A stretch of DNA of 64,000 bases from a bacterium (GTDB taxonomy: Bacteria > Patescibacteriota > Patescibacteriia > UBA10025). The stretch spans positions 467,710 through 531,709 of the forward strand of contig JAKAGM010000001.1 of the NCBI GenBank assembly GCA_021815445.1, read 5' to 3'. Every line of letters starts with the position of its first letter. Position 1 is the stretch's first letter. The position numbers and the translations under genes were made by a program. This document shows, piece after piece, positions 1 to 16,006 of this stretch. The notes below the pieces were generated by a model. That model was not told where the DNA came from. It ran no database searches and saw only the letters and a list, made by a program, of their open reading frames with translations.

Positions 1-7
1 CGATAAT

Positions 8-1264
8 GTGCCCACTACAGTCAAAGCCTTCGGGAAAAATGCGGGCGATAAAGTCGTCGCACAAAGTTTTTCAACAGCAGTTGACACCCCGGTAAAACGG
101 ATCCAGGTTTACCTGCGCAAACACTCGAACCCAAACAACAACATCACGCTTCGGCTTGTTGCTGATACTGGCGCGAATAATCCGAGCAACACGGTCATCA
201 GCCAGGCGACTATCAGTAAGAATGACATAAGCGGCGCGTTTTCCTGGATTGAAGTGAGTTTCCCTATTCCCCCGCTGCTTGTCGGGGGAAGGACGTATTG
301 GCTGACCCTGGACGCGAATGCTGTCGATACGAAATATTACGAATGGGACCTCGATACAAATGCGGCTGCATTCCCCGGCGAGGCTCGTCAGACAACGGAC
401 TTTTCTACTGGCGCCTGGAACGTCGTGAACGGCGACTTCGCATTCAAAACTTTTGGCGTCGGAGCGACATCAGCATCGAACGTGACTGTCGGAACTTCCG
501 CCAAGCCAAAAAATCTTCATGCGAAAAATATTTTGAATTCTTCGGAGATTTGGGGTGACGCATACTATGATTCCAAAGACGCCGCCTCGATAGTGCATGG
601 TGCGTCCCACCCCTCGACAAATGATCTGCCCAAGCCCTTTCCGATACAAGACGCGGATATCACGAATTGGGAGAATATTGCCGCGGCCGGCGGCAACCTC
701 ACGGCAGGAGATGTCGATACGTTTACTCCCGGAGTCGGAGGAGCTCCCGATACCTATACAATCACCAGTGCGAGGAGTTTCGGGCCCAAGAAAATTGTCG
801 GCAATCTCATACTTGATAACGGCGCAAATCTTACGCTGACCGGCAACATTTGGGTTACGGGAAATATTACCTTCGCTCACCCCGGCGCCCACGTTCAGCT
901 CGCGGCAAGTTTTGGACCGTTATCCGGCGTTGTCATTACCGACGGGCAAATTGTTGATAAGAACAATTCAGTCATCAGAGGTTCCGGAGATCCAAAAAGT
1001 TTTCCCCTCTTTATCTCTACGCTCAACCTGATTGACACGCCGGCTATCGATACGAGCAATAATTCCCGTTCGGTGATTTATTACGCTCCCTTTGGCGTTA
1101 TCCACCTCGATCAAAACGGGTACCTCAATAGCGCGTTGGCCTATTACATAGAAATGGACCAGGGCAGTACAGTCGAGTATAACTCCGCCTTACAGGGATT
1201 CACTCTCCCCCCCGAACCCGGACGCGTCTTTGGAGTCGAATCAGGCACCTGGCAGGAGAAGTAG
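8..1264 (+). CDS. Hypothetical secreted beta-solenoid repeat protein. The start is GTG at position 8 with no in-frame stop upstream inside the window, so the N-terminus may lie beyond the window edge.
   Basis: Long ORF with repeated NxT/G-rich beta-strand-like segments (NLILDNGANLTLTGNIWVTGNITF) typical of right-handed beta-helix proteins. No catalytic motif recognised. Confidence 0.45.
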   Translation: MPTTVKAFGKNAGDKVVAQSFSTAVDTPVKRIQVYLRKHSNPNNNITLRLVADTGANNPSNTVISQATISKNDISGAFSWIEVSFPIPPLLVGGRTYWLTLDANAVDTKYYEWDLDTNAAAFPGEARQTTDFSTGAWNVVNGDFAFKTFGVGATSASNVTVGTSAKPKNLHAKNILNSSEIWGDAYYDSKDAASIVHGASHPSTNDLPKPFPIQDADITNWENIAAAGGNLTAGDVDTFTPGVGGAPDTYTITSARSFGPKKIVGNLILDNGANLTLTGNIWVTGNITFAHPGAHVQLAASFGPLSGVVITDGQIVDKNNSVIRGSGDPKSFPLFISTLNLIDTPAIDTSNNSRSVIYYAPFGVIHLDQNGYLNSALAYYIEMDQGSTVEYNSALQGFTLPPEPGRVFGVESGTWQEK

Positions 1265-1418
1265 TGAGGACAAAACGAGTTTCTCCCTTAAAAGTGCCAG
1301 GCAATGGGAGACACAAAACTACATTTTCATTGAGAAACCCAAAGAAAAGCCAGAAAACCGGGTTATCCACAGTAGCTGTAATCAGCTAAAAACAGCTAAA
1401 AATACGAACAAGCCGAGG

Positions 1419-1447
1419 GCTTGACAAAATAACCATCACCGGGTAAG
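1419..1447 (+). promoter_or_regulatory. Sigma70-like promoter (TTGACA-17-TAAGAT) upstream of the giant adhesin gene, leaving a ~380-nt leader.
   Basis: TTGACA at 1419-1424, 17-nt spacer, TAAGAT at 1442-1447, read directly from the sequence. Confidence 0.5.
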
Positions 1448-1834
1448 ATGCATGAACAAAAGATAGTGTTTTGAGAACAATTCCCAAAAAAATCAAAACA
1501 TCGCTCATTAGTCCACGTAGGAGGAAACTGTACATTCCAAAAATACTTTCGGAGGAAAGTATAAAAAGCCAACAAAAGGTTATAAAAGCAATGCCTCGCT
1601 GAAGCTTAAGCGAAGCGGGCAGCAATAAAATCAGCTTCAAGTCGGATAAACACTCTAGGGTAACCCCTAGAATTCACGCTGATTTCTTTCACAAGTTGAG
1701 TTTATAACTTTCTGTTGGCTTTTTTGATTGTCTGGCTACGCCAGACAACAATCCTGCCTGAGCGAGTCCCTTGTCGAAGGATCTCGCTCAACCATCAACT
1801 TAATTAACTCTATATATCAATTAACACACATTAT

Positions 1835-4800
1835 ATGACTATTAATCTCCTCCCCCGCAAGACCTGGCGCCAGAGAATCCTCAAGGGCGTCCACGTTTTC
1901 GCATTACTCGCTCTCGTGGCAAATATGTCCATGGCGAGCGTTTTTATTTCGCCGACCACTACGCTGGCCAAGCAGGCTGATACTGCTGAACAAGTCCCGC
2001 AAAGCGCTACGGTGAATACCGACGCGGCTACCACTGCCGCGGTGAGCACGCCTGTCCCTAATCCGGCGCTCGGCCAATCATGCGGTTTGGATATCGGCTT
2101 GATCGTTGATACCTCGGGCAGTATTGATTCCACGGAGATGTTGCAGATGAAAACGGCCATGACGAATTTTTCCAACGCTTTTGTCGGCACACCGACTGTC
2201 TTTAGTCTGACCTCTTTCGCGGATGATTCAGTGTTGAAGAGAGCTTTCTCCCGCACCCCGACCCAGATGGCCGGAGATATCGGCACAGACATTCCGTCAT
2301 ACGGCAACGGGTGGACGAACTGGGACAGCGGTTTGGCAAGAAGCTTTGCCACTTTTGATCCGCGTGCCGCTAAATCAAATTTAATTGTTATTGCTACTGA
2401 CGGCTCTCCCAACCACTGGGGTTATCCGACAAACACGGGAATCACTGATTACACTCAGGCGTTAAGCTATGCTGTCACTCGCGCCAACACTATCAAAACT
2501 GCCGGCACGCGAATCGTCGTCGTGGGCATTGGCAATGATACCAGCGATCCGGCAACTCTTGCCGAGAAACTGCAAAAGATGGAAGACATCAGCGGAACAA
2601 ATGTTGCCACAACTCCCGGAGCGATCACTACCTCAACCGATGTAATTAAAGTCACTGACTTTACCGGCATTGGATCAGCATTGTCAGCTTTCGCCAGCCA
2701 ATTGTGCGGCGGAAAAATCCTCGTCCAAAAACAATTTGATACCAACGGCGACGGCCAAGTCGACCTGGACGGTTCGCAGCCGAATGACGCCCTGACCGGA
2801 TGGACATTTGATGTCAATGGAACGCCGACGAATCCGGCTCCGCTCACCACCACGAATACCGGTGCGCTATCCTTCGATGTTCAGAACGGCACCTACAGTG
2901 TCTCTGAGACAAACATAAAATCCGGAACCCGACTTGCCAGCGCAACATGCGTCAAGGGCACCCAGGCGGTTGGGACTTTTGACCCGGCCACAAAGACCGT
3001 CAACGGCCTGGTGATGGGAACGGACGGAACAATTAATTGCAACTTCGTCAATTCAACCGACACCGGAACTCTGAAAGTCGTCAAGCATGTCGTCGGCGGA
3101 ACAGCCACGGCTGCTAACTGGCAGCTTCACGTCAAACAAAACGGCAGTGAAGTCGCCGGCAGCCCGCAAGCGGGGAGCGAAGCAGGCACCAGCTATACTC
3201 TACCGGTTGGAACATACAACGTTTCTGAAACCGGAGGGTCCGCCAATTATACCCAGTCATTTTCAGACAACTGCCCCGGCGGTACCATTACCATCGCAAA
3301 TGGCCAAACTGCCGCCTGTACGCTGACGAATACCCGCGATACGGCCAGAGTGGTATTCCAAAAAGTTCTTGTCGGCAACTCCCAGAACCAGGTTCCCGCC
3401 GACTGGACGTTCACGGTCAACGACCAGCAAGTGAACGGCAACGGCGGCTCGACTGTTTTGCAGACCAACCAGGATTACACTGTCACCGAATCCTCCAGTT
3501 ACAGCAATCTTTATTCTTTGACGAATGCTACCGGCGCCTGCCATCTCAATGCCCAGGGCCAAATCATCGTGAATACCGCCGCCAACGGCGGCACCTGCAC
3601 AGTCACCAACACCCGGAATACCGGATCGCTGGTCGTGCATAAGGATGTCGTGAACCCGGATGGCGGCGCTGTGTCAGATACGCACCAGTTCACCGTCACT
3701 CTTGATGGCGGAAACTCAAAAACAATTGCTGAAGGGACTGACGCGACATACTTGAATCTTCCCACGGGAACATACACCGTGGCTGAAAACTCGGACGCAG
3801 ATTACACGTTTGTTTCGTATAGCTCTGACACTGACGTAAATACCGCAGGCGCACAGGTGGTCGTAACAAAAGACGGCACGACCCAGCTTACGGTGACGAA
3901 CAAGCAGAAGAAAGCGACGGTGACGATCAACAAAGATGTCCGCGACTATCTGGGCAATGACGTTTCTGACAGCACTTCATTTCAAGTGACCTGGAGCGGG
4001 AGCCCGATGACCATAAGCGAGGGATCCCCCGCTGTCTTCCAAGTGAACCCCGGGACATACACATTTACTGAAACAGCAAACTCGCTCTATACCACCCAGA
4101 CAGCTTCGTATCAGGTGACAGTTACAAGCAACGGTTCCGCTTCACGCACCTTTGTGAACTGGCAGAAGTCCGGCACGATTACGGGCATGAAGTTTAATGA
4201 CATGAACGGCAATGGCGTGAAAGATTCGGGCGACAACGGATTGCAGAACTGGGAAATCTATATTGACTCGAACGGCAACGGATCGTGGGACAGTGCAGAA
4301 CCTAAAGTCGTCACCGATGTAAACGGCAACTACACATTCACCAATCTGACCCCCGGCACCTACAAAGTTCGGGAAATCCAAAAGAACGGCTGGACGCAAA
4401 CCTACCCGTCAAACAACCTGAACAATGTTACGCTCTCGGTCGGACAAACAGTGAGTAACCAAAACTTCGGCAACTTCCAGCTCGGAGCCATTACAGGCAT
4501 GAAGTTCAACGACCTGAACGGCAACGGCGTGAAAGACGCCGGAGAGCCGGGAATAGCCGGATGGACCATCAACATTACGAGTCCGGTGAATACCAATACC
4601 ACGACAGATGTGAATGGCAACTACATCTTCCCGAACCTTACTGCGGGCACCTATGCGGTCAGTGAGACTCACCAGACAGGCTGGACGCAGACCGCGCCGG
4701 CCGGAGGCACGTATTCCGTGCCGATTACCTCAGGTACAGCCGCTGCCGATAAGAACTTCGGAAATTTTCAGAATATTTCCGTCCGAGTCTGCAAGTACGT

Positions 4801-7800
4801 GGATACCAACGGTGATGGAAATATCGCCAATGACCCGCTCTACACGGGGCAGGGCGGCTGGGCTATGACGTTGAACACCGCTACCACGCAAAATACCGTT
4901 GAAGGTTGTACCACCTTCTCGAACCTCGGCCCCGGAGCTTACACGTTAAGTGAAGGCGCTAAATCGGGCTGGGTAAAAACCTACCCTGTGGGAGCTAATT
5001 ACCAGTTCAATGCTGTTTCAGGCCAAAACCAGGATTACAAGTTTGGAAATTTCCAGACTGCAACTGTTTCCGGGTACAAATACAATGACATGAACGGCGA
5101 CGGTAACTTAGCTGACGGCGCTCCCCTGCAAAACTGGGAAATCAAGGCTACAAAAGGCGCCGCAGTCAAGACCGCCACTACAGATGTGAATGGCTTCTAC
5201 CAATTCAGTTTCTCGCCCAGCGAGAACGGCCAATGGATAATCAGCGAAACCTTAAAGGCTGACTGGACCCAGACAGCGCCCAACGGCGGGACGTATACCG
5301 TCAACGTCGCTTCGGGGACCAATGAAGTCAATAAGAACTTCGGCAATTTCCATAACGCCAGCGTCACTGTCTGCAAATACGTAGACGTGAACGGCGACGG
5401 TAACATTGTCGGCGACCCGCTCTACACTGCCGCAGGCGGATGGCCTGTCCGTTTCCACGGCATTACTCAGAATACAGTTGACGGCTGCACCACGTTTACC
5501 GGCATCACTCCGGGAAGCTACACCGTTGACGAGCTCAACCTTTCCGGCTGGACACGCACTATGCCGACGGGGCCGTCCTATACCTACACCGCCGTCTCCG
5601 GTGACCACACGACTTACAACTTTGCCAACTTCCAGCTCGGATCAATTTCAGGCATGAAGTTCAACGACCTGAACGGCAACGGCACCAAAGACATCGGAGA
5701 ACCCGGTTTGGCAGGATGGACCATCAGCATTTCCGGACCGGCAAGCGCAAATACCGTGACTGATGCAAATGGCAACTATAGCTTCGCTAATCTGACTGCA
5801 GGTACCTACACGGTGAGTGAAACACAACAGGGTGGCTGGACACAAACTGCACCGGCTGGAAATACCTACTCGGTAGCAATTACTTCAGGAACTGCGGCCA
5901 CCGGAAAAAATTTCGGCAACTTCCAAAAGATCTCTGTCCGCGTGTGCAAGTATGTTGACGTCAACGGCGATGGAAATATCGCCAATGACCCGCTCTACAC
6001 GGGGCAGGGCGGTTGGGCTATGACGTTGAACACCGCTACCACGCAAAATACCGTTGAAGGTTGTACCACCTTCTCGAACCTCGGCCCCGGAGCTTACACG
6101 GTAAGTGAAGGAGCGAAGACCGGCTGGATCAAGACCTATCCGACAGCTGCAAACTACGCTTTCAACGCTGTCTCGGGCCAAAACCAGACCTTTGCATTCG
6201 GCAACTACCAGACAGCCACAGTCTCGGGCTATAAGTTCGAGGATACAAATGGCAACGGCGTCCGGGACAACGGCGAGCTTGGATTGCCAAATTGGCATAT
6301 CACCGCTACCAAAGGCGCGTCGGTAAAAGATGTGACGACAGACGCGAACGGTTTCTATCAGTTCTCTTTCGCCCCGAATGAAACGGGCTCATGGACTGTC
6401 GGTGAGGTGAACCAGGCCGGATGGACGCAAACAGCTCCAGTAAGCGCGACTTATGCTGTAGCTGTAAACTCCGGCACCGCTGAGATAAACAAGAATTTCG
6501 GCAACTTCAAGAATTTCAATGTGTACGTCTGCAAATATGTGGACGGCAACGGTGACGGCTCAGTGGCTTACGACAGCTTTTACAACGGCGAGGGCGGCTG
6601 GCCTATCGTATTGAACGACGTTACGCACTATACGACAAATGGCTGCGCCGAGTTCACCGACCTTGGCCCCGGCAGTTATACATTGAATGAAGGTTCAAAA
6701 GTCGGGTGGATCCAGACGAATCCGCAGGGCGGATATGAGTTCAACGGCGCATCGGGCTTCGATCCTGAATATATCTTCGCCAATTTCCAGCTTGGTTCAG
6801 TCTCGGGCCATAAGTTCGAGGACATGAACGGTAACGGGAAATTCGACCTTGGCACTGACCTGCCGAAGAGCGATGTCACCATCAAACTCTGGCACGACGG
6901 CGAAGTTGTCGCCACCGACGTCACTGACGAGAACGGCGCATACAGTTTCACCGGGCTTAAGGCCGGCGATTACACTGTTTCAGAGAATCCGCTTGCCGGA
7001 TGGATACAGACCTATCCCGCGCTCCCCGGCACCTATGCCTTCACAATTTCTTCGGGAACAGTACTGACAGACTATGACTTCGGCAACTTCAAGCAAACCT
7101 CAATTTCCGGGATGAAGTTTAACGATGTCAACGGAAACGGCGTGAAAGACCAGGGTGAGAACGGACTCGCGGGTTGGACCATAAAACTCTTTGCGCTCAA
7201 TGACGGCCAGTACGTGTCCCAGTCTCAAACCGTCACTGATGACGCGGGCAATTACTCCTTTAATGCGCTGACTCCGGGGACATACTCCCTCTCTGAGACA
7301 AACCAGGATGGCTGGACGCAAACGTATCCTGCCGCTCCCGGCTCCTACACAGGTATTGAATTGACATCGGGAATTCCTTTTGTCGGCAAAGACTTCGGCA
7401 ACTTCAAACTTGGCAAGATATCCGGCTACAAATTCGACAATACCGGAAGCAAGCTCGATAACTGGCAGGTCTGCTTGAGCGGCGGGTCAATCGACAACGG
7501 CGTCGACAAGGACTTCGGTTCCCACTGCGTCGTCACGGGAAGCGGCGAATGGCCGACCGGCTACTATGAGTTTTCCGGCTTGCTTGCCGGCACATATAGC
7601 GTGAAAGAAACGGCCCAGGACGGTTGGACAGCGGTAACCCCTGCTTCGGGTGAATATACCGGCATCGCTGTAACTTCACAGTTCGACAAGTCTTACGACT
7701 TCACGAATCGCCGCATCTATCCTGATCTTACCATCTCGAAGACTGACGGTCTCACCACGGCCAACCCCGGCCAGACAATCACCTACACGATTGTCGTGAA

Positions 7801-9295
7801 GAACCAGGGCGAATACAAAGCTGATGGCGTAGTCGTCACCGACACGTTGCCCGCGCACCTGACATTCGTCTCGGCGAGTCCCGCCGCGGCCACACAGGTC
7901 GGCAACGCGCTGACATGGAATCTCGGCACGCTCGCTGTCGGTGCTTCACAGACAATAACCGTCACTGCGAAAATAGACGCGCTGATGCCGTTCGGGAACA
8001 CTGATCTGAAAAACACGGCTACCGCCTCGACAACGACTGTCGAACCGGACACTTCAAATAACACCGCGACTGATACTACAACTGTCCCGGCATCGCCAAC
8101 AATCTCCCTGACTAAGACAGCTTCAGCGCCTCAGGTCAATCCGGGCGACACTATCACCTTTACCATGACATGGGGCGTGGATAGCAACAGCCAGGCGACC
8201 AACGTGGTACTCACCGACCCCGTTCCGGCGAATACGACCTTCGTCTCTGCGAATAATGGCGGTGTCTACAACTCCGGAACTAACACAGTTACCTGGACAC
8301 TCGGGACCAAGAATCCCGGCGATACAGGCGCTGTCCAGCTCGTAGTCAAGGCGTTTACGCCTCTTGCAAGCGGCACGGTGATTAAAAACGTCGCCACACT
8401 TGGCTCGACACAGAACAACCCTGTCCAGGCGCAGGCGTCTGTCACTATTGTTTCAGGGCCTATCCTGAAAATTTCCAAAGTTGCCGACAAACAGCAGGTA
8501 AACCCGGGCTCGAAAGTGACATACACTGTCGTCATCACCAACACGGGCAACGACCAGGCGACAAATGCCACGCTCACCGATACCCTGCCGGCCGGCTTCA
8601 CGTTCGCTGACTCTGGCCTGTCGACCAAGACGTTCGTCCTCGGCAATCTCCTCGCAGGCACGAGCGTTACCACAACCTACGATGTCAACGTCGCATCAGA
8701 CGCGACTGCCGGCATCCACGAGAACACGGCAACGACAAAGGCGGACAATCATCCTGCCGTCACGGCCAAAGCTCCCGTCGAGGTCATCATCCCGCAGATC
8801 CTCGCGGAGCAGGCGTTCCCTAAACTGGTGATTACAAAAAAGGTGGACAAAGCGTTTGCCAATCCCGGCAACACCGTTACCTATACTGTCGTAGTGGAAA
8901 ATACGGGAAATGCCGTCGCGATAAACGTCCAGGTGCAGGATCTCCTGCCCGCGGGTTTCACCTTTACCGACAAGACGACCACAAAAGTGTTTAAAGTCGG
9001 AGACCTGGCGCCCGGCCAGAAGCATGATGTGAAATATGACGTCGTCATCAGCAAAGACATGCCGGCAGGCACCTACAAGAACTTCGCAGTCGCGTGGGCT
9101 GACAACCATCCGAATGTCACAGTGTCCGCCCCGCTTGAAGTGAGAGTTCCCAAGGTGCTCGGCGCCGAGATTCTTCCGACCACCGGCAACAACCTGCTTG
9201 AAATAGTCTTCATAGCATTCGCAGCGCTCTTCGTATTCTTTATCGGCTGGGGCCTCTGGGTAACCCGCCGGGACGAGAACGAGGAACGGGCATAA
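1835..9295 (+). CDS. Giant LPXTG-anchored surface adhesin of 2486 aa. Architecture: N-terminal signal/TM, a vWA domain with a MIDAS motif, about 14 SdrD-B/CnaB-type domains, five DUF11 repeats, and a C-terminal LPTTG sorting signal.
   Basis: vWA MIDAS motif DTSGS within DIGLIVDTSGSIDS. Repeated units MKFNDxNGNGVKDxGExGxxGWTI ... TDVNGNYxFxNLTxGTYxVSE ... GWTQT resemble SdrD B-like/CnaB folds. DUF11-like repeats (TYTIVVKNQGEYKADGVVVTDTLPAHLTFVSASP). C-terminus has LPTTGNN, a hydrophobic stretch, then RRDENEERA. Confidence 0.9.
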   Translation: MTINLLPRKTWRQRILKGVHVFALLALVANMSMASVFISPTTTLAKQADTAEQVPQSATVNTDAATTAAVSTPVPNPALGQSCGLDIGLIVDTSGSIDSTEMLQMKTAMTNFSNAFVGTPTVFSLTSFADDSVLKRAFSRTPTQMAGDIGTDIPSYGNGWTNWDSGLARSFATFDPRAAKSNLIVIATDGSPNHWGYPTNTGITDYTQALSYAVTRANTIKTAGTRIVVVGIGNDTSDPATLAEKLQKMEDISGTNVATTPGAITTSTDVIKVTDFTGIGSALSAFASQLCGGKILVQKQFDTNGDGQVDLDGSQPNDALTGWTFDVNGTPTNPAPLTTTNTGALSFDVQNGTYSVSETNIKSGTRLASATCVKGTQAVGTFDPATKTVNGLVMGTDGTINCNFVNSTDTGTLKVVKHVVGGTATAANWQLHVKQNGSEVAGSPQAGSEAGTSYTLPVGTYNVSETGGSANYTQSFSDNCPGGTITIANGQTAACTLTNTRDTARVVFQKVLVGNSQNQVPADWTFTVNDQQVNGNGGSTVLQTNQDYTVTESSSYSNLYSLTNATGACHLNAQGQIIVNTAANGGTCTVTNTRNTGSLVVHKDVVNPDGGAVSDTHQFTVTLDGGNSKTIAEGTDATYLNLPTGTYTVAENSDADYTFVSYSSDTDVNTAGAQVVVTKDGTTQLTVTNKQKKATVTINKDVRDYLGNDVSDSTSFQVTWSGSPMTISEGSPAVFQVNPGTYTFTETANSLYTTQTASYQVTVTSNGSASRTFVNWQKSGTITGMKFNDMNGNGVKDSGDNGLQNWEIYIDSNGNGSWDSAEPKVVTDVNGNYTFTNLTPGTYKVREIQKNGWTQTYPSNNLNNVTLSVGQTVSNQNFGNFQLGAITGMKFNDLNGNGVKDAGEPGIAGWTINITSPVNTNTTTDVNGNYIFPNLTAGTYAVSETHQTGWTQTAPAGGTYSVPITSGTAAADKNFGNFQNISVRVCKYVDTNGDGNIANDPLYTGQGGWAMTLNTATTQNTVEGCTTFSNLGPGAYTLSEGAKSGWVKTYPVGANYQFNAVSGQNQDYKFGNFQTATVSGYKYNDMNGDGNLADGAPLQNWEIKATKGAAVKTATTDVNGFYQFSFSPSENGQWIISETLKADWTQTAPNGGTYTVNVASGTNEVNKNFGNFHNASVTVCKYVDVNGDGNIVGDPLYTAAGGWPVRFHGITQNTVDGCTTFTGITPGSYTVDELNLSGWTRTMPTGPSYTYTAVSGDHTTYNFANFQLGSISGMKFNDLNGNGTKDIGEPGLAGWTISISGPASANTVTDANGNYSFANLTAGTYTVSETQQGGWTQTAPAGNTYSVAITSGTAATGKNFGNFQKISVRVCKYVDVNGDGNIANDPLYTGQGGWAMTLNTATTQNTVEGCTTFSNLGPGAYTVSEGAKTGWIKTYPTAANYAFNAVSGQNQTFAFGNYQTATVSGYKFEDTNGNGVRDNGELGLPNWHITATKGASVKDVTTDANGFYQFSFAPNETGSWTVGEVNQAGWTQTAPVSATYAVAVNSGTAEINKNFGNFKNFNVYVCKYVDGNGDGSVAYDSFYNGEGGWPIVLNDVTHYTTNGCAEFTDLGPGSYTLNEGSKVGWIQTNPQGGYEFNGASGFDPEYIFANFQLGSVSGHKFEDMNGNGKFDLGTDLPKSDVTIKLWHDGEVVATDVTDENGAYSFTGLKAGDYTVSENPLAGWIQTYPALPGTYAFTISSGTVLTDYDFGNFKQTSISGMKFNDVNGNGVKDQGENGLAGWTIKLFALNDGQYVSQSQTVTDDAGNYSFNALTPGTYSLSETNQDGWTQTYPAAPGSYTGIELTSGIPFVGKDFGNFKLGKISGYKFDNTGSKLDNWQVCLSGGSIDNGVDKDFGSHCVVTGSGEWPTGYYEFSGLLAGTYSVKETAQDGWTAVTPASGEYTGIAVTSQFDKSYDFTNRRIYPDLTISKTDGLTTANPGQTITYTIVVKNQGEYKADGVVVTDTLPAHLTFVSASPAAATQVGNALTWNLGTLAVGASQTITVTAKIDALMPFGNTDLKNTATASTTTVEPDTSNNTATDTTTVPASPTISLTKTASAPQVNPGDTITFTMTWGVDSNSQATNVVLTDPVPANTTFVSANNGGVYNSGTNTVTWTLGTKNPGDTGAVQLVVKAFTPLASGTVIKNVATLGSTQNNPVQAQASVTIVSGPILKISKVADKQQVNPGSKVTYTVVITNTGNDQATNATLTDTLPAGFTFADSGLSTKTFVLGNLLAGTSVTTTYDVNVASDATAGIHENTATTKADNHPAVTAKAPVEVIIPQILAEQAFPKLVITKKVDKAFANPGNTVTYTVVVENTGNAVAINVQVQDLLPAGFTFTDKTTTKVFKVGDLAPGQKHDVKYDVVISKDMPAGTYKNFAVAWADNHPNVTVSAPLEVRVPKVLGAEILPTTGNNLLEIVFIAFAALFVFFIGWGLWVTRRDENEERA
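4481..6790 (+). repeat. Intragenic tandem duplication of two 1155-bp units (385 aa each, four CnaB/SdrD-B-like domains per unit). The units contain 133-bp cores that are near-identical at the DNA level (4813-4945 vs 5968-6100, one mismatch).
   Basis: Direct comparison of the two units. Protein segments LGAITGMKFNDLNGNGVKDAGEPGIAGWTI... and LGSISGMKFNDLNGNGTKDIGEPGLAGWTI... are collinear, and the ISVRVCKYVD...GPGAYT block is identical at the nucleotide level except for one C/T. Confidence 0.85.
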
Positions 9296-9470
9296 ATGTA
9301 TTTAACGCGCAGGGCGGGTCTCTCACCGAGCCTGAGGCTCTCAGAGCCGAAGGCCTGACCCGCCCTCGCATCGGGAGAGTACCCCAGGTCTCCCGACCTG
9401 GGGTCAAAGCCCCTCCACCAAAAGTGCGCAGGCCAAGTCTCCTGACTTGGCCGGACAATCCAACGGGGAC
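9296..9470 (+). promoter_or_regulatory. Structured intergenic region with three related palindromic hairpins, each containing a GTCTC core. Probable terminator/insulator or protein-binding array between the two LPXTG genes.
   Basis: Palindromes AGGGCGGGTC...GACCCGCCCT enclosing GGCTCTCAGAGCC, then CCCCAGGTCtcccgACCTGGGG and GGCCAAGTCtcctgACTTGGCC, in ~150 nt. Confidence 0.35.
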
Positions 9471-9500
9471 TTGACAACTTGTTGTCAATATCAGTACACT
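9471..9500 (+). promoter_or_regulatory. Candidate sigma70 promoter whose -35 lies inside an 8-bp inverted repeat (TTGACAAC ttg TTGTCAA), which could be an operator.
   Basis: TTGACA at 9471-9476, ~18-nt spacer, TACACT. The palindrome TTGACAACTTGTTGTCAA overlaps the -35. Confidence 0.35.
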
Positions 9501-9615
9501 AAGCGTGTCCATTTTACAAAATACATCCCAGAAAACCCCCTCCCCAGAAGTCACGGGGACAGAGGTTTTTCCAGGAATTGGAACCGGCAGTACTAATAAT
9601 TTATCAATATAACTT

Positions 9616-12081
9616 ATGAGTAAATTCATACTCATGGCGCAAAGACGCCTCAATAAGACCTGGTCAATGACCATAATCGGGGGGATAGTTTTGAGTGTGC
9701 TCATCGGGGGTGTGCTCATCGCAAAGGCCGACATCGGTACTATAACAATTAATGATCCTGTCTTAGTTTCCGGAACCACGTACAAAGTAACCGGCATGTG
9801 GAGCCCACAAGGTAACCAATGCTGGACAAGTGGGGGTGACGGCACTTTCCACTACAAAGTTTATGTTTTCGATGATAAAAACGGCAACGGAAATTACGAT
9901 AGCGGTGAGAAGATTTCTCAAGTTAATCCTGCCGCTTGTAATGAAGATTACACATCAAGCGTTTCAAGCTCAAATCGTGATTTAGGCGGTAATTGGCCCG
10001 CAATCGCATCTTCTAGCAATGGGGGTACTCCCCAACCAGATGCGGCTTTTACCTTGGGCAACGGTAGCCACACAATTTGCGCAGCACTGATACACGTTCA
10101 AGATAACGGCCATGATCGGGTAGATGGTGTGACCTGTGCCAGTAAGCCGATTGTCATAGCCTATTGCGGCGACGGGATCAAGAACAATGGCGAACAATGT
10201 GACGGCACCGACGGAGTTAGTCCACATCAAACCTGTAATGCTGATTGTCATCTTGTCGATGTCCCCTACTGCGGCGACGGCATCGTGAACCAGACGAGTG
10301 AACAGTGTGATCAGGGCCCTGATGGCGGTTCAACATGCACCACTAAGTGCACATGGAAGCCAGCCACTATTACACTTAATAAAGAGGTAAATAACCAGTT
10401 CGGCGGAGATGCTGCTCCAAGTGATTTTACTTTGAAGATTGACGGAGAAGCGGTATCCCAGGGAGTAGCTCATGAAGTTACCCTTGATACGCCTCATTCA
10501 ATTGATGAAGGAAGTCTCACTGACACTGGCTATGCGTTTGACTCGATTAAGGGCGGTGAACAGTGTCCCTCGGAGCTTGGCGGGACTGTAACTCTCTCTG
10601 CTGGAGAGAATATCACCTGCACGATCACAAACCACGACGTCCAGCCGAAACTGACAGTGGTTAAAGAGGTAGTCGGCGGCCCAAAGACTGTTGCTGACTT
10701 TCCGCTGTTTGTTGGAGATATCTCAGTCACGAGCGGCGTCCAGAACGGCTTTAATGCCGGATTTTATCACGTGACCGAAACGAATCAACCCGGGTATACC
10801 GCAGCATTCTCATGCAATGATGACGGGGAAGGAACGGTCAGCCTGAATCTGGGTGATGTCAAAACCTGCACTATCACCAACACATACACCCCGTTTTGCG
10901 GCGACAAGATTGTTGATAAAAGGGAGCAATGCGACGGAAACACCCAAGTTTGCACTACGGCAGACGGCTACAAGGGTACTCAAACCTGCAACATGCCACC
11001 GCCTCCAAATAGTGTAACAGCTGCAGTTGCTACGAATTACTGCACGTGGAATCCTTGTGTGACTACTGAGAAATGCGGTGATGGTATCAAAAACGGCCTT
11101 GAACAGTGCGACGGCACAGACGGAGTCGCTTCCAACCAGACCTGCACCGCGCAGTGCACGCTCAAGGACAATCCTACGCCACTTACGCCGAACCCTGTTA
11201 TCACGCTTGCAAAGATTGACTCTCCGGACCCTGTTGCCGCCGGAGCGAATATCACTTACACCTTGAATTGGACGGTGAGCAACGCGTCGGCGACCAACGT
11301 TGTCCTGACCGACGTGATTCCCGCGAACACGACTTTCGTGTCCGCTTCGACGCCCAGCGCATATGATTCCGGCACGAACAAGGTGACATGGAGCATGGGC
11401 ACGGTTGCCACAGGCAACTACGTGACCACGCTCGTCGTGAAAGTCGCCTCCCCTCTCGCCAACGGCACTAAGATTGATAACACGGCGACCATCGACAGCA
11501 CAGAGACCGACCCGGTGAATGCCGCAGCCCAGACGACGGTCTCGACAGCCCCGATACTGAGCGTCGAAAAGATCGTTGACGTGACGACAGCGAATCCCGG
11601 CCAGACAGTGAACTACACGGTGAAAGTGACCAACAGCGGCACTGACACGGCAAACAACGTCAAACTGACAGATGTGCTCCCGGCCGGCTTTACCGCCAAG
11701 GATGACGGCACAGGGACTGTCATTCACAGCTTCGGCAACATCGCCGCCGGCGAAACAGTGTCCACTTCATTCGCCGTAGTCATCGGCAGCACAGTGACAG
11801 CAGGGACCTATACGAACGTCGTGCAGGTCGTCGGCGACAATCACAGCCAGGTGGCCGCCCAGATAGCGCTCAATGTAGTTGTGCCGCAAGTGCTTGGCGA
11901 AAAGACTGAAGTGACACCCGCCCCGAAACCGAAAGTTTTGGGAGCAACAACGCTCCCGGTCACAGGATCGAACCTGTGGGTATGGGTCATCGCTTCGATG
12001 CTCGTCGCTTCTCTTGTCGGCGTCGGCGTCTACTTTAAGCCGAGAGAGCTTTCCGCAGAGGACAAGAACACTTCCAAATAA
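9616..12081 (+). CDS. LPXTG-anchored surface protein of 821 aa with Cys-rich CGDG...EQCDG repeats (Myxococcus-type cysteine-rich repeat-like) and DUF11 repeats; C-terminal LPVTG.
   Basis: N-terminal TM segment IIGGIVLSVLIGGVLIA. Repeats YCGDGIKNNGEQCDGTDG, YCGDGIVNQTSEQCDQGPDG, FCGDKIVDKREQCDGN, KCGDGIKNGLEQCDGTDG. DUF11-like block TYTLNWTVSNASATNVVLTDVIPANTTFVSAS. C-terminus LPVTGSN, hydrophobic stretch, KPRELSAEDKNTSK. Confidence 0.85.
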   Translation: MSKFILMAQRRLNKTWSMTIIGGIVLSVLIGGVLIAKADIGTITINDPVLVSGTTYKVTGMWSPQGNQCWTSGGDGTFHYKVYVFDDKNGNGNYDSGEKISQVNPAACNEDYTSSVSSSNRDLGGNWPAIASSSNGGTPQPDAAFTLGNGSHTICAALIHVQDNGHDRVDGVTCASKPIVIAYCGDGIKNNGEQCDGTDGVSPHQTCNADCHLVDVPYCGDGIVNQTSEQCDQGPDGGSTCTTKCTWKPATITLNKEVNNQFGGDAAPSDFTLKIDGEAVSQGVAHEVTLDTPHSIDEGSLTDTGYAFDSIKGGEQCPSELGGTVTLSAGENITCTITNHDVQPKLTVVKEVVGGPKTVADFPLFVGDISVTSGVQNGFNAGFYHVTETNQPGYTAAFSCNDDGEGTVSLNLGDVKTCTITNTYTPFCGDKIVDKREQCDGNTQVCTTADGYKGTQTCNMPPPPNSVTAAVATNYCTWNPCVTTEKCGDGIKNGLEQCDGTDGVASNQTCTAQCTLKDNPTPLTPNPVITLAKIDSPDPVAAGANITYTLNWTVSNASATNVVLTDVIPANTTFVSASTPSAYDSGTNKVTWSMGTVATGNYVTTLVVKVASPLANGTKIDNTATIDSTETDPVNAAAQTTVSTAPILSVEKIVDVTTANPGQTVNYTVKVTNSGTDTANNVKLTDVLPAGFTAKDDGTGTVIHSFGNIAAGETVSTSFAVVIGSTVTAGTYTNVVQVVGDNHSQVAAQIALNVVVPQVLGEKTEVTPAPKPKVLGATTLPVTGSNLWVWVIASMLVASLVGVGVYFKPRELSAEDKNTSK

Positions 12082-12093
12082 CATTGTCTAACG

Positions 12094-12161
12094 CCTTGGC
12101 CGGGTATCCCTACCCGGCCAAGGAAAAAATCCCGGCTCGCGTGTATGAGCCGGGTTTTTTG
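12094..12161 (+). terminator. Bidirectional rho-independent terminator pair. A 13-bp-stem hairpin is followed by A6, and a second hairpin CCCGGCTC-N8-GAGCCGGG is followed by T6.
   Basis: CCTTGGCCGGGTAtcccTACCCGGCCAAGG-AAAAAA-TCCCGGCTCgcgtgtatGAGCCGGG-TTTTTT, immediately after the stop at 12081. Confidence 0.8.
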
Positions 12162-12478
12162 GTTTCAGTCATTCTGCCCATTTCCTCCCCCTGCTAGTAA
12201 AATCTACCGCCCCGAACTTGATTCGGGGTCCCGCAATATTACATCGGGATGCTAAATTAATCTGCCACTCCGGGCTTGCCTGCCCGCCTCTGGAGGGACC
12301 CGGAGTCCCGATGTAGTGACTGGGATGCTGCCCGCCCCGCTTCGCGGAGCGAGGCCAGGGAGTCAAGCTCAGCATGGGAAGATTTATTAGTCCTCCCTCA
12401 CATCAGAACACGCTTCTTTGCAGATAATAGCCAGGCAAGGAACCGCTCGACAAAGCGTTTTAAATCCCCGAATCGGCC

Positions 12479-12507
12479 TTGACAAAATGGCTGGGATTTG
12501 ATATCCT
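12479..12507 (+). promoter_or_regulatory. Candidate promoter TTGACA-17-TATCCT upstream of the CAP-domain gene.
   Basis: TTGACA at 12479-12484 with TATCCT at 12502-12507. A second TGcTATACT sits 11 nt before the annotated ATG. Confidence 0.35.
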
Positions 12508-12543
12508 AAAACGTTACTACTTTCTGCTATACTACATATTGTT

Positions 12544-14064
12544 ATGGAAGAAAGTCGCCAGCCGCACAAAAGAATACTCCACGGTATTAAGCATGTGCAT
12601 CACCACGTGAAGCGCCATGCGTGGAGGTTATTTATCCCCCACCAGGGCAATAACCACCAGCCGCATGCCCTGCGGCCCAGAGCGCTTAGGGTCTATTCTA
12701 TAGGCCTGATTTTGGTGAAGGTTTTCGTCAGCGGCTTCCTGTTTCTCGTATATCCGTCCTCCGGAGAGTTTGCCTCGATTACCGCTTCGCAGATCCTGAG
12801 CCTGACCAACGCTTCCCGGGCTGAGAACGGCATTGCGTCGCTTTCACTGAATAGCACACTCAACCGTGCCGCCAGCCTCAAGGCGCAGGATATGATAGCG
12901 AATAATTACTTTGCGCACACGAGCCCCCAGGGGGTGAAACCGTGGGATTTCCTGAAACGGGCGGGCTACAGCTATAGCGCCGCGGGCGAGAATCTCGCCA
13001 TGGATTTCACGGAGGCTGAGACTGTCCACACGGCTTTCATGAACAGCCCGTCCCACAGAGAAAACATCCTCAATGGGAAATATACCGAAATGGGCATCGC
13101 AGTAGTTTCAGGAAAAATAGACGGACGCGAGACAACGTTGCTCGTTGAGTTTTTTGGCAAACCCTACCAACAGGCTGCCGCTGTTGCGCAACAGGCAAAA
13201 CCGACGCCAACTCCGACCCCGACTCCAGCTACCCAACCAAAGCCCGCTCCCGCCCCGAAGCCGGCAGCACAGCCGGTGACGTATACGGCGAAGCTTGCGA
13301 GCCAGAGTGCCGCCTCGCTGGCGATAAAAACCAACGAAATAATCCCGGTATGGGTGGAATTTACGAACACGGGAACAGCGACGTGGACGAATTCGGGCGA
13401 GCATTTTATCGCGTTGAACGTCGCAAACCCGCCAGGCAGGGAGAGCGTTTTCAGGAATGACGCATGGAAAGCGCCGTACCGCCCCGGCATCATGGACCAA
13501 ACCCAAGTGAGGCCCGGGCAGAATGCGAGATTCTCTTTCACGCTCCAGGCTCCCGCCCAAGCCGGCACGTATGAAGAAGATTTCGGGCTCGTAGCCGAGA
13601 ACCTCACATGGATCGCGGGAGGGTCCGTCAACATTCCAATCACCGTCGTTGAGGAGCAGAAGCAGGAAACGCCGACCACCGTCGAGGTTGTCGGGCAGGC
13701 TACCCCGCCGCCGCCCGTGGAACAGACCCCGCCTCCTGCAAACACCGCCCAACAGCCGACAAATCTAGCTGTCCCGCCTGCTAATATTGCCGTCGAACAG
13801 CCTAGCCCGGCTCCCGAAACGCAAGTGCTCGGAGAGCAAAGCGGTGATTTCGTCGGATTACTCGTAGAAATTTCAAACAAATTCTTCGTTGTCTTTCTTA
13901 TTTTCATTATCATCGCTCTCCTGCTCAACATCCTGATCAGGATTCGCATTCAACATCCGCATCTGATTTTCCAGACTTCCCTGGTTATCATTCTCGCTGC
14001 CAGCGCCGTATTGTATAAGCCGCACTTCCTTGAGAGCGTGACGCGGGTGCTTACGATCACGTAA
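12544..14064 (+). CDS. Membrane-anchored CAP/SCP (PR-1/YkwD-like) domain protein with a Pro/Thr-rich linker, a second extracellular domain and a C-terminal TM.
   Basis: CAP-superfamily motifs (NYFAHTSPQG...GENLA...HTAFMNSPSHRENIL...YTEMGIAV). Linker PTPTPTPTPATQPKPAPAPKPAAQP. Hydrophobic N- and C-terminal segments. The start codon is uncertain. Confidence 0.65.
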   Translation: MEESRQPHKRILHGIKHVHHHVKRHAWRLFIPHQGNNHQPHALRPRALRVYSIGLILVKVFVSGFLFLVYPSSGEFASITASQILSLTNASRAENGIASLSLNSTLNRAASLKAQDMIANNYFAHTSPQGVKPWDFLKRAGYSYSAAGENLAMDFTEAETVHTAFMNSPSHRENILNGKYTEMGIAVVSGKIDGRETTLLVEFFGKPYQQAAAVAQQAKPTPTPTPTPATQPKPAPAPKPAAQPVTYTAKLASQSAASLAIKTNEIIPVWVEFTNTGTATWTNSGEHFIALNVANPPGRESVFRNDAWKAPYRPGIMDQTQVRPGQNARFSFTLQAPAQAGTYEEDFGLVAENLTWIAGGSVNIPITVVEEQKQETPTTVEVVGQATPPPPVEQTPPPANTAQQPTNLAVPPANIAVEQPSPAPETQVLGEQSGDFVGLLVEISNKFFVVFLIFIIIALLLNILIRIRIQHPHLIFQTSLVIILAASAVLYKPHFLESVTRVLTIT

Positions 14065-14265
14065 AAATCCCTACTTTGGCGGTGAGCAGGTTTCAAAGCT
14101 TGCGCCATCAAGCGTAACTTATCCACAGGGATGTCTGCTGTGCTGTGTAATAAGCGCATTTTTGTGCGTGGAGTAATTTCTTGACTCCTTGACCCCGCTA
14201 TCCCTTCTGCCGTAAGATGAAGTAACGTCTTTTTTTAATGAAATAAGGTGTATATACCCTCTTAA

Positions 14266-15309
14266 ATGTCTATGAAACTTTTTTCCGCTCGAACACCAGG
14301 AATTGTGATAGCCGCTGTCGGCGTAATCCTGCTTTCTAGCGCCCTCCTGGTTGCTCATCCGGCATACGGCTTTGAAGCGCCTGTCATTACCTCCGTACCC
14401 CCGGCAAATGCCGTGACAACTGATGGTACGTACGTTTACCAGGCACAAGTCCAAACGGCCGGCCCGCAGACAGACCTGTCATACTCGTTGGCGCATCAAC
14501 CCGAGGGAATGACTGTCGACGCGCAGGGAAAAATCACCTGGCAACCTCGCACCCCCGGCGACTACCGCATCGTCCTCGATGTCGCCGACTCTCTCGGCAA
14601 CGCGTCCCAGCCGTTCAGGGTCACTGTCGTACTGGGAGCGCCGGTTAAAATTGCCATTGAACCTAACAACCAGCCGACACCCGTCAAAACGGGCGCCACG
14701 GTCCAATTCATCGCAAAGGCATTTGATGCAAAAGGAAATTCGGCCTCTGTGGATAAAGCCGTGTGGTCAACTGACGGAAGTATAGGTTCCATCTCACCCG
14801 ACGGCCTGTTTTCGGCGCAAAAGAAAGGCGCCGGTCATGTGACGGCCAGAGTGGGGACTATTACATCAACAATAGCTGTCTCGGTAACCGGTTCACAGGT
14901 AAAGTCTCCCGCCCCACAAGGAAAGGTTCTCGGGACATCTACAGAACCGGGCGACCAGAATACAAACGCGAACTCCGAGCCTCAAACGGGTGATACGCTT
15001 CAAGCGGCCCCGCAATCACAAGCGCAGGCTAATCCGCAAGCTTCCTGCACGAATTGGCGACAGTGGATTATTATTGCGATGCTCATTGTATACGCGCTTG
15101 CGTTGATCCTCTACTACAAGTATATGGCGAAGCGTTCAAACTCATTGTGGTGGCTTTTCCCGACATTATTGACGGTAATCGGGCTTATCATCTACTCGCG
15201 CTATATGTGCGTGGGGACGTACGTCTGGTGGCCCTGGGTGCTGCTTCTGCTCGGTATCGTCATTACGTTCATCTCCAGTCCGCATCGCGCGCCGGCAAAC
15301 CCGGCGTGA
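14266..15309 (+). CDS. Secreted/membrane protein with a bacterial Ig-like (Big_2-type) domain and C-terminal TM helices.
   Basis: Signal-peptide-like N-terminus. Big_2-like segment AVWSTDGSIGSISPDGLFSAQKKGAGHVTARVGTITSTIAVSVTG. Two C-terminal hydrophobic helices. Confidence 0.65.
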   Translation: MSMKLFSARTPGIVIAAVGVILLSSALLVAHPAYGFEAPVITSVPPANAVTTDGTYVYQAQVQTAGPQTDLSYSLAHQPEGMTVDAQGKITWQPRTPGDYRIVLDVADSLGNASQPFRVTVVLGAPVKIAIEPNNQPTPVKTGATVQFIAKAFDAKGNSASVDKAVWSTDGSIGSISPDGLFSAQKKGAGHVTARVGTITSTIAVSVTGSQVKSPAPQGKVLGTSTEPGDQNTNANSEPQTGDTLQAAPQSQAQANPQASCTNWRQWIIIAMLIVYALALILYYKYMAKRSNSLWWLFPTLLTVIGLIIYSRYMCVGTYVWWPWVLLLLGIVITFISSPHRAPANPA

Positions 15310-15509
15310 AGGGAGCCATAACAATTACTTACACGACAGTGGACTCGCATCAGGGTTCACTGTTTTGGATATACTGCCATGGCATCTGTACAAGTCCGTC
15401 AGAACAGGGTATACTGGGCGGGCGACATCGTGCAAATGTATTCGTTTGTGGCCGAGTAGCCGCCCATGCATGTGCCGGTGGCTAACAGAGTAATTTGGCA
15501 AAATAACCC

Positions 15510-15950
15510 ATGACATTCTCATCACTCGAAATACTCATCGTGCCTCTCGTAGCCGGTTTTCTCGCCCAGGCCATTAAGCTGTTGACGGACGGCATCAAGG
15601 GCAACTTTGACTTTAAACACCTGTGGGCGAGCTACGGCGGGATGCCCTCATCTCATGCCGCTTTTGTCGTCGCGCTGGTAACTGAGGTTTGGTTCAGAGA
15701 AGGCATCGGTTCGTCTTCCTTTGCGATTGCGACAATCTTTGCCCTGCTTGTCATGCGTGACGCGCTCGGACTCCGCATGCACTTAGGGCACCAGGGAAAA
15801 GCTATTAATGAACTCATAACAAAATACTATCCTGAAGCCAAGGATGCCATCCCGCCGCTTGAGGAAAGATTAGGCCACACTCCCGCGCAAATCGCTGTCG
15901 GCGCCCTCCTCGGACTCTGTGTTGCATTCACGATTCATTACATCCTCTAG
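15510..15950 (+). CDS. Divergent PAP2 family membrane protein (DUF212/YuiD-like).
   Basis: Motif GGMPSSHAAFVVAL and the overall 146-aa multi-TM layout are characteristic of the PF02681 family. Confidence 0.65.
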   Translation: MTFSSLEILIVPLVAGFLAQAIKLLTDGIKGNFDFKHLWASYGGMPSSHAAFVVALVTEVWFREGIGSSSFAIATIFALLVMRDALGLRMHLGHQGKAINELITKYYPEAKDAIPPLEERLGHTPAQIAVGALLGLCVAFTIHYIL

Positions 15951-15973
15951 GCCTCCATACCTTTTCAACATTT

Positions 15974-16006
15974 AAAACGTCTTGGATTTTTCCGGGACGT
16001 TTTTGT
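15974..16006. terminator. Bidirectional terminator hairpin between convergent genes (AAACGTC...GACGTTT followed by a T-run).
   Basis: AAAACGTCttggatttttccggGACGTTTTTGTTT lies between the + gene ending at 15950 and the - gene ending at 16012. Confidence 0.55.

Follow-up and report, generated by a model that had tools for sequence, protein, structure and literature searches.

Probable recent gene conversion between old tandem stalk units of a predicted fibrillar adhesin from a Patescibacteria-like bacterium

Intragenic recombination in a surface-protein gene is known from the direct repeats of H. pylori cagY (PMC2194252), and the mechanisms of antigen variation have been reviewed (PMC4534519). 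Periscope proteins, of which SasG, Rib and Sgo_0707 are examples, are defined by long tandem repeats that are highly identical in both DNA and protein, and recombination of these repeats has been proposed to alter the length of the stalk (PMC8201768). Fibrillar adhesins and SdrD-type MSCRAMM stalks have likewise been described (PMC8286594; SdrD B repeats, PDB 4jdz). The locus analyzed here shares with the periscope proteins a wall anchor, an N-terminal functional domain and a stalk of tandem globular domains, and its homologs vary in the number of stalk domains (8 versus 4). However, its repeats lack the identity by which periscope proteins are defined, as identity between them was 57-83% at the nucleotide level and 46-88% at the amino acid level, synonymous sites were saturated and near-identity was confined to 132 nt. 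As in cagY-type systems, recombination would have taken place between in-frame direct repeats in one gene, with products that stay in frame, and patches of identity lie within otherwise diverged copies. Unlike those systems, the locus has one 132-nt tract and one weaker tract in an old, saturated duplication, with no sign that rearrangement is frequent or programmed, and the searches reported below found no variants within the species. The repeat homogenisation seen here is a known phenomenon, of an ordinary kind, in a new host.

The gene encodes a protein of 2486 aa in which an N-terminal signal/TM segment is followed by a VWA domain, Ig-like domains, a stalk of ~12 CnaB/SdrD-B-like domains, four DUF11 domains and an LPTTG motif (LP.TG at aa 2447). 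Pfam matches were obtained to VWA, SdrD_B, SpaA and DUF11, and the translation and Pfam results together contained every element of the LPXTG fibrillar-adhesin architecture. Judged from its sequence, the protein is best explained as a fibrillar adhesin of a Patescibacteria-like bacterium, anchored by sortase and carrying at its tip the VWA domain, which is likely to be the ligand-binding head. The Patescibacteria assignment is based on contig size and on how more distant homologs are named. With SdrD-type stalks it has in common the terminal adhesive domain (VWA), the CnaB/SdrD-B-like stalk with EF-hand-like D-x-N-x-N-G loops and the LPXTG anchor; it differs from them in its Patescibacteria-like host (contig of ~0.88 Mb), in the alternation of canonical SdrD_B domains with a Cys-pair variant for which Pfam has no model, and in the four DUF11 domains of its C-terminal part. 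The database name "SpaA isopeptide-forming pilin-related" was borne by distant homologs only. The coordinates of all features are collected in Table 1.

Table 1. Features of the adhesin gene, with positions in the 64-kb window (the whole stretch of DNA that was analyzed).
Feature	Position	Strand	Basis or comparison
Surface-protein gene (2486 aa)	1835..9295	+	single ORF, translation, Pfam
VWA domain (aa 86-249)	2090..2581	+	Pfam PF00092, E 2.8e-8, 34.6 bits vs cut-off 23.8
Unit 1 (385 aa)	4466..5620	+	FGNF motif positions, domain identity matrix, per-domain Pfam
Domain A1	4466-4756	+	
Domain B1	4757-5041	+	
Domain C1	5042-5338	+	
Domain D1	5339-5620	+	
Putative homogenised tract, head of A1	4466..4550	+	86% nt, third positions 0.82 vs 5621-5705
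Putative conversion tract, B1 copy (aa 994-1037, DGNIANDP...GPGAYT)	4814..4945	+	131/132 vs 5969-6100
Unit 2 (385 aa)	5621..6775	+	motif positions, domain identity matrix, per-domain Pfam
Domain A2	5621-5911	+	
Domain B2	5912-6196	+	
Domain C2	6197-6496	+	
Domain D2	6497-6775	+	
A-head partner tract, A2	5621..5705	+	exact run 5649-5683
Putative conversion tract, B2 copy	5969..6100	+	exact runs 5969-6012 (44 nt), 6014-6100 (87 nt)
Predicted cell-wall sorting signal	9173..9292	+	translation: LPTTG, hydrophobic stretch, charged tail RRDENEERA

Within the stalk, two consecutive in-frame units of 385 aa (1155 nt) were confirmed in the one ORF, each made up of four domains of ~95 aa that begin at an FGNF or FANF motif. 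The original prediction had placed the pair at 4481-6790; its period was the same as that found here, but its boundaries were off by 15 nt, as the units run from 4466 to 6775. It had also been proposed that most of each unit had diverged to about 60-70% amino acid identity; overall, 263 of ~385 aligned residues (68%) were identical between unit 1 and unit 2. By domain pair, identity was 76% for A, 88% for B, 63% for C and 46% for D, and in the domain identity matrix D1 was nearer to B1 and B2 (57%) than to D2. The gapless 1155-nt register extends only from ~4460 to ~5100, a stretch that takes in A, B and the start of C; beyond it, indels shift the rest. Tandem Repeats Finder reported zero arrays in positions 1-16000 because the units are too diverged, and the locus is therefore not a high-identity tandem repeat. 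A repeat-family search returned many low-identity families across the region, none of them the core by itself; the core was instead verified by comparing the two stretches directly.

The expectation of four CnaB/SdrD-B-like domains per unit held at the level of fold, but Pfam supported only the A and C types. In the per-domain search the scores to PF17210 (SdrD_B) were 59.2 bits for A1, 56.3 for A2 and 40.2 for C2, all over the gathering cut-off of 29.7, while C1 was under it at 26.1 bits and B1, B2, D1 and D2 had no Pfam match at E <= 0.01; the eight domains thus did not all exceed the gathering score. A profile of the A and C domains aligned with one of the B and D domains in hhalign at a probability of 99.5% (E 8e-23). 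The AF2 model of B1 had a pLDDT of 84.9, and its best fold matches in the PDB were to CnaB2/SpyCatcher, UafA and SdrD B1-B2, at TM 0.5-0.6 with weak E values of 0.016-0.3. Against PDB sequences, the B/D-type profile gave only weak EF-hand-loop matches. On the modeled structure and profile comparison, the B and D domains are predicted to be a divergent Cys-pair variant with a fold common to the SdrD-B-like A and C domains, and along the stalk Ca-loop SdrD-B-like domains (A, C) and this variant (B, D) follow one another in turn.

The most similar part of the two units is a 132-nt core in the B domains, in which the B1 copy contains exact runs of 44 nt (4814-4857) and 87 nt (4859-4945) separated by a sole mismatch, a synonymous GGC/GGT difference at 4858. 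The original prediction had described a 133-bp core at 4813-4945 with one difference; the near-identity is real, but that interval holds two differences as position 4813 also differs, and the B1 left flank, which reads ...GTGGATACCAACGGT up to 4813, is outside the core. Nor are the copies perfect repeats over 133 bp, as had been stated, the longest perfect run being 87 bp. Identity at third codon positions was 0.977 in the core versus 0.36-0.39 in the flanks. In a permutation test the observed run was reached in none of 20000 permutations, with all sites or with third positions only (P <= 5e-5), and the binomial probability of <=1 mismatch in 132 at the flank identity of 71.5% was ~3e-18. Exact direct repeats of >=18 nt numbered four in the whole 64-kb window, three of which were within the adhesin gene at an offset of 1155.

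A second, weaker tract of similarity was found at the heads of the A domains, and it includes an exact run of 35 nt (4494-4528, pairing with 5649-5683). Its third-position identity (Table 1) was an outlier, the values for other domain-head pairs all being <= 0.68, and once the B core was masked the permutation P for this tract was 1.5e-4 to 1.5e-3. This is probably a second conversion tract, older than the B core, and part of the similarity could reflect the slowly evolving, codon-biased motif GMKFNDLNGNG.

Comparison with orthologous genes gave further evidence on the history of the core. The B core (B1 or B2) was 86% identical in amino acids to the B core of P0003, the only ortholog that carries a B domain, and identity at third positions was 0.35-0.37; the core is therefore without constraint at the nucleotide level. 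In the flanks of the B domain, B2 shared 82% amino acid identity with P0003 B but 78% with B1, an arrangement incongruent with that of the core, where B1 and B2 were the same (100% aa) and P0003 was at 86%. No internal exact repeat of >19 nt was present in the orthologous genes of L002 and L003, and the patch is therefore lineage-specific. Ongoing gene conversion, one of the two explanations that had been offered for the core, was supported by the contrast of its third positions (0.98) with the saturated flanks and by the freedom of the ortholog core to vary. We consider it very likely that an old duplication was followed by a recent, short gene conversion between the B domains, with an earlier event at the A-domain heads, an argument that draws on one genome of the species.

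Under this history, the two 385-aa units would go back to an old tandem duplication within the stalk, and long afterwards non-reciprocal homologous recombination would have overwritten ~132 nt of one B domain with the sequence of its counterpart. Mismatches at 4813 and 4946 would mark the two ends of the tract, and they limit the identity to at most 132 nt. Conversion would have wiped out the differences accumulated in the core, with one synonymous change either arising later or surviving patch repair, and a similar event, either earlier or less complete, may have homogenised the first ~85 nt of the A domains. The recombination presumably took place between misaligned sister copies or intramolecular copies. 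Neither RecA nor any other recombination gene turned up in the scanned parts of the 64-kb window, where RecA was sought among 18 neighbouring ORFs.

The headline of the original prediction, a recent 1155-bp tandem duplication, was contradicted by the third positions, as their identity between unit 1 and unit 2 equals that between orthologs of different species and the sites are just as saturated. A truly recent duplication of the whole unit, after which the non-core sequence diverged fast under diversifying selection, would account for units that are adjacent, in frame and exactly equal in length, and fast evolution is frequent in surface proteins. Fast protein divergence cannot, however, saturate synonymous sites to the level seen in the flanks, and the greater similarity of D1 to B1 and B2 than to D2 also argues against such an event. 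The comparison with orthologs, which had been put forward as a check, was likewise unfavourable: in neighbor-joining (NJ) trees D1 formed a clade with domains of P0002 and P0004 (bootstrap 98%) and D2 with its own orthologs (84%), so that each has separate orthologs in other species. C2 grouped with P0003 C to the exclusion of C1 (bootstrap 84%), a placement that is open to unequal-rate effects; the trees were built from domains of ~95 aa in four proteins only. A recent duplication is accordingly extremely unlikely.

Some concern about assembly is warranted, given that the contig is from a short-read, k-mer metagenome assembly (k141), in which paralogous or strain variants could be threaded or merged into a false patch, and a perfect extra unit would collapse alike in every short-read assembly and so be hidden. 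Against this, the record name points to a largest k of 141, which exceeds the 132-nt patch, and its exact run of 87 nt by far, and so makes the de Bruijn path unique, the flanks are distinct and in frame on either side of it, and the contig is unbroken across the region for 877 kb. The 2486-aa protein was moreover unchanged across seven contigs of 0.2-1 Mb and at least two different lengths (877,264 and 881,187), the 877-kb one being an ENA metagenome contig (assembly ERZ27237554). We regard an artefact as very unlikely. The extension of identity to synonymous sites might instead suggest that selection on the nucleotides themselves, through an RNA element, an internal promoter or an overlapping gene, has kept the core alike, an idea that is barely credible given that the P0003 core differs at 63-65% of third positions. 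Each such element was also looked for in the core: no Rfam match fell there (the only matches were two distant tRNAs) and the fold z-score was -0.20, no promoter-like sites were present, and no ORF in another frame or on the other strand was common to both copies. Old duplication with later conversion remains the reading that we favor, and annotation of the locus should describe a modular stalk that is old and a conversion patch that is recent, not a fresh duplication.

The original prediction had also linked the repeats to variation in stalk length. Exact runs of 87 nt and 44 nt that recur in frame at a distance of 1155 nt could plausibly support rare deletion or duplication of 385 aa. Change of stalk length by in-register recombination is plausible because the orthologs have four rather than eight domains and one has a hybrid: the 2486-aa protein has eight domains of the A-D block versus four in both P0002 and P0003, and P0002 carries an apparent A/C hybrid domain. 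No length variant was found within the species, the 90% cluster having the 2486-aa protein as its one member, and the protein collection held no variant of another length above 66% identity to it. A scan with the two-unit protein as query recovered distant relatives only (<=44% identity) from GTDB species genomes, and the B1 domain, run against JGI metagenome contigs, gave matches at <=42% identity only.

It is conceivable, although we think it rather unlikely, that the adhesin acts as a slow "periscope" in which conversion keeps recombination-competent patches alive and length shifts in frame by two or four domains. If so, natural length variants may exist that are invisible to short-read assemblies, and the distance at which an episymbiont and its host make contact could be tuned through stalk length. 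For the source population, the locus offers a concrete candidate junction for deletion or expansion. More broadly, our results indicate that intragenic homologous recombination takes place in a Patescibacteria-like lineage with a reduced genome and that species differ in how many stalk domains this adhesin family carries, neither of which will surprise specialists.

The adhesin fits the fibrillar-adhesin layout (PMC8286594), with its parts listed in the table below, and among its named homologs the closest carry annotations as MAG proteins from the Patescibacteria group and from Kerfeldbacteria. The orthologous adhesins of other species are syntenic: they are preceded by the same 603-aa gene and followed by a ~810-aa DUF11 gene. 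In the window, the genes downstream likewise code for surface proteins, namely a DUF11 protein of 821 aa that carries an LPVTG sorting signal of its own, a protein with a CAP (cysteine-rich secretory) domain and a PKD/Big-like protein; the gene for the 821-aa protein also adjoins the adhesin in the loci L001-L003, a conserved arrangement. An N-terminal signal (MTINLLPRKTWRQRILKG...) is common to all four orthologs (window 1835-2090 and the N-termini of P0002, P0003 and P0004). The window adhesin has the start of its VWA motif at aa 80, versus aa 328, 220 and 401 in P0002, P0003 and P0004, respectively, so that the relatives appear to have a variable extra module between signal and VWA domain that is missing from the window adhesin.

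Features of the adhesin and of the genes 3' of it (nucleotide positions in the window unless marked aa)
Feature	Position	Strand	Description
Adhesin ORF	1835-9295	+	2486 aa
Adhesin part 1			Hydrophobic N-terminal segment
Adhesin part 2	aa 86-249		VWA domain
Adhesin part 3			Several Ig-like domains
Adhesin part 4			~12 domains of 95-105 aa, FGNF/FANF motif at each start
Adhesin part 5			Four DUF11 domains
Adhesin part 6			C-terminal sorting signal: LPTTG, hydrophobic stretch, RRDENEERA
A1	4466-4756		Unit 1
B1	4757-5041		Unit 1
C1	5042-5338		Unit 1
D1	5339-5620		Unit 1
A2	5621-5911		Unit 2
B2	5912-6196		Unit 2
C2	6197-6496		Unit 2
D2	6497-6775		Unit 2
Weaker second tract	4466-4550 / 5621-5705		A-domain heads
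Surface-protein genes	9616-12081, 12544-14064, 14266-15309		3' of adhesin

When the stalk domains were delimited by cutting at the FGNF motifs, A1-D1 and A2-D2 each made up a unit of exactly 385 aa (1155 nt), both in frame, as originally predicted for 4481-6790, coordinates that describe the same repeat with a 15-nt shift. The near-identical core within the B domains is also real, although the predicted 133 nt with a single difference had to be trimmed, given that position 4813 in that span differs too: 4814-4945 and 5969-6100 are identical at 131 of 132 positions, in exact runs of 87 and 44 nt, and the lone difference, at 4858, is synonymous. Chance is excluded as the origin of this identity, since the core flanks are 71.5% identical (binomial P for no more than one mismatch over 132 nt, ~3e-18) and the observed run was reached in 0 of 20000 permutations, whether of all sites or of third codon positions only. 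Only four exact direct repeats of at least 18 nt exist in the 64-kb window, three of them in this region at an offset of 1155.

The units themselves are not the product of a recent tandem duplication, as the original prediction had proposed; the feature was correctly spotted, but its age was misread. Protein identity is 76% for the A pair, 88% for B, 63% for C and 46% for D, and D1 resembles B1/B2 (57%) more than it does D2. Outside the core, third codon positions are 36-39% identical between the units, in the range also found when the adhesin gene is compared with P0002 and P0003, its closest orthologs (0.29-0.52), and are thus saturated. In bootstrapped neighbor-joining trees, D1 grouped with domains of P0002 and P0004 (98%), D2 with domains of P0002 and P0003 (84%), and C2 with the C domain of P0003 to the exclusion of C1 (84%). 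Together, the saturation and these groupings place the unit copies before the species splits.

Against this old background, third positions within the core are 97.7% identical between B1 and B2. The same 44 codons in the B domain of P0003 retain 86% protein identity with third positions of just 35-37%, which are therefore free to differ, and so there is no constraint on the nucleotides as such. Relationships also conflict along the domain: in the flanks B2 is nearer to the P0003 B domain (82% aa) than to B1 (78%), whereas in the core B1 equals B2. We infer from these comparisons that the core is a patch of recent gene conversion between the B domains, as had been suggested. No internal exact repeats >19 nt were found in the orthologous genes. 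Readings of the patch as an RNA element, a promoter or an overlapping ORF were unsupported, there being no Rfam family, no RNA folding signal (z-score -0.20), no promoter-like sites and no ORF that the two copies share in a different frame or on the opposite strand. A false patch created by an assembly chimera is unlikely. An 877,264-bp ENA metagenome contig (ERZ27237554 k141_1660939) contains the window sequence unchanged, and its record name indicates a largest k of 141. This k is greater than the patch (132 nt) and the exact run of 87 nt within it, and hence the path through the graph is unique; moreover, the identical 2486-aa product is present on seven contigs, 0.2-1 Mb in size and of at least two distinct lengths. 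An extra, perfectly identical unit would be hidden by collapse in every short-read assembly.

The weaker tract at the A-domain heads has 86% nucleotide identity, including a 35-nt exact run, and a third-position identity of 0.82, versus at most 0.68 for every other pair of heads, whether paralogs or orthologs (P = 1.5e-4 to 1.5e-3 with the B core masked). Separately, the head of domain E, which follows unit 2 (6776-6835), is ~75-80% identical in nucleotides to the A2 head (5621-5680) at the same 1155-nt offset, and, of the domains that are not A, E resembles A2 most (54% aa); this may be what is left of the beginning of a third unit. The fourth exact repeat (29 nt; 51298-51326 and 51436-51464, 138 nt apart and in frame) encodes YAWHADGTPV in adjacent FG-GAP-like repeats of a minus-strand gene (50271-54521), whose 1416-aa product ends in a Pretoxin-HINT domain without a toxin domain beyond. 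Also on the minus strand (41910-45785) is a 1290-aa protein with dockerin type I, subtilase S8 and five FG-GAP repeats, a mix unusual in a genome of such size.

The description of each unit as four CnaB/SdrD-B-like domains stands at the level of the fold, but the stalk really alternates two subtypes. A1, A2 and C2 passed the Pfam SdrD_B threshold, with C1 slightly under it, while B1, B2, D1 and D2 had no Pfam match at E <= 0.01. The B/D domains are a separate Cys-pair type (VCKYVD-NGDG ... GC-TF) with a D-x-N-G-D-G loop and invariant Cys12 and Cys51, a pair whose invariance suggests an intradomain disulfide; of the 120 best homologs, few had this variant, and those were Patescibacteria-like proteins. 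The two types are homologous by profile-profile comparison (99.5%), and the AlphaFold2 model of B1 (pLDDT 84.9) had CnaB2/SpyCatcher, UafA and SdrD B domains as top matches, at TM-scores of 0.5-0.6 and weak E-values.

The exact runs of 87 and 44 nt recur in frame at a spacing of 1155 nt. Crossing-over between the copies would remove or add exactly 385 aa and would leave an intact hybrid B domain, in the order A-B-C2-D2. This is the architecture seen in P0003, whose block is A-B-C-D; that of P0002 is A-D1-C-D2, and the window adhesin has eight domains. The third stalk domain of P0002 (aa 1323-1422; 6967-7266 in its locus, L002) looks like a hybrid of an A2-type head (25/34 identical to A2) and a C2-type tail (44/66 to C2), the scar that would be expected from an in-register deletion of two domains. 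The P0003 architecture and the P0002 hybrid point to whole-domain changes of stalk length in evolution. No variant of the adhesin >66% identical was found at another length, and its 90% cluster has one member. The adhesin is functionally similar to periscope proteins (PMC8201768), but those are defined by long, highly identical repeats, which it lacks. It is already well known that repeats in surface-protein genes undergo gene conversion and unequal recombination (e.g. cagY, PMC2194252; reviewed in PMC4534519), and the conversion patch of the adhesin is an ordinary case of this process in a little-studied lineage.
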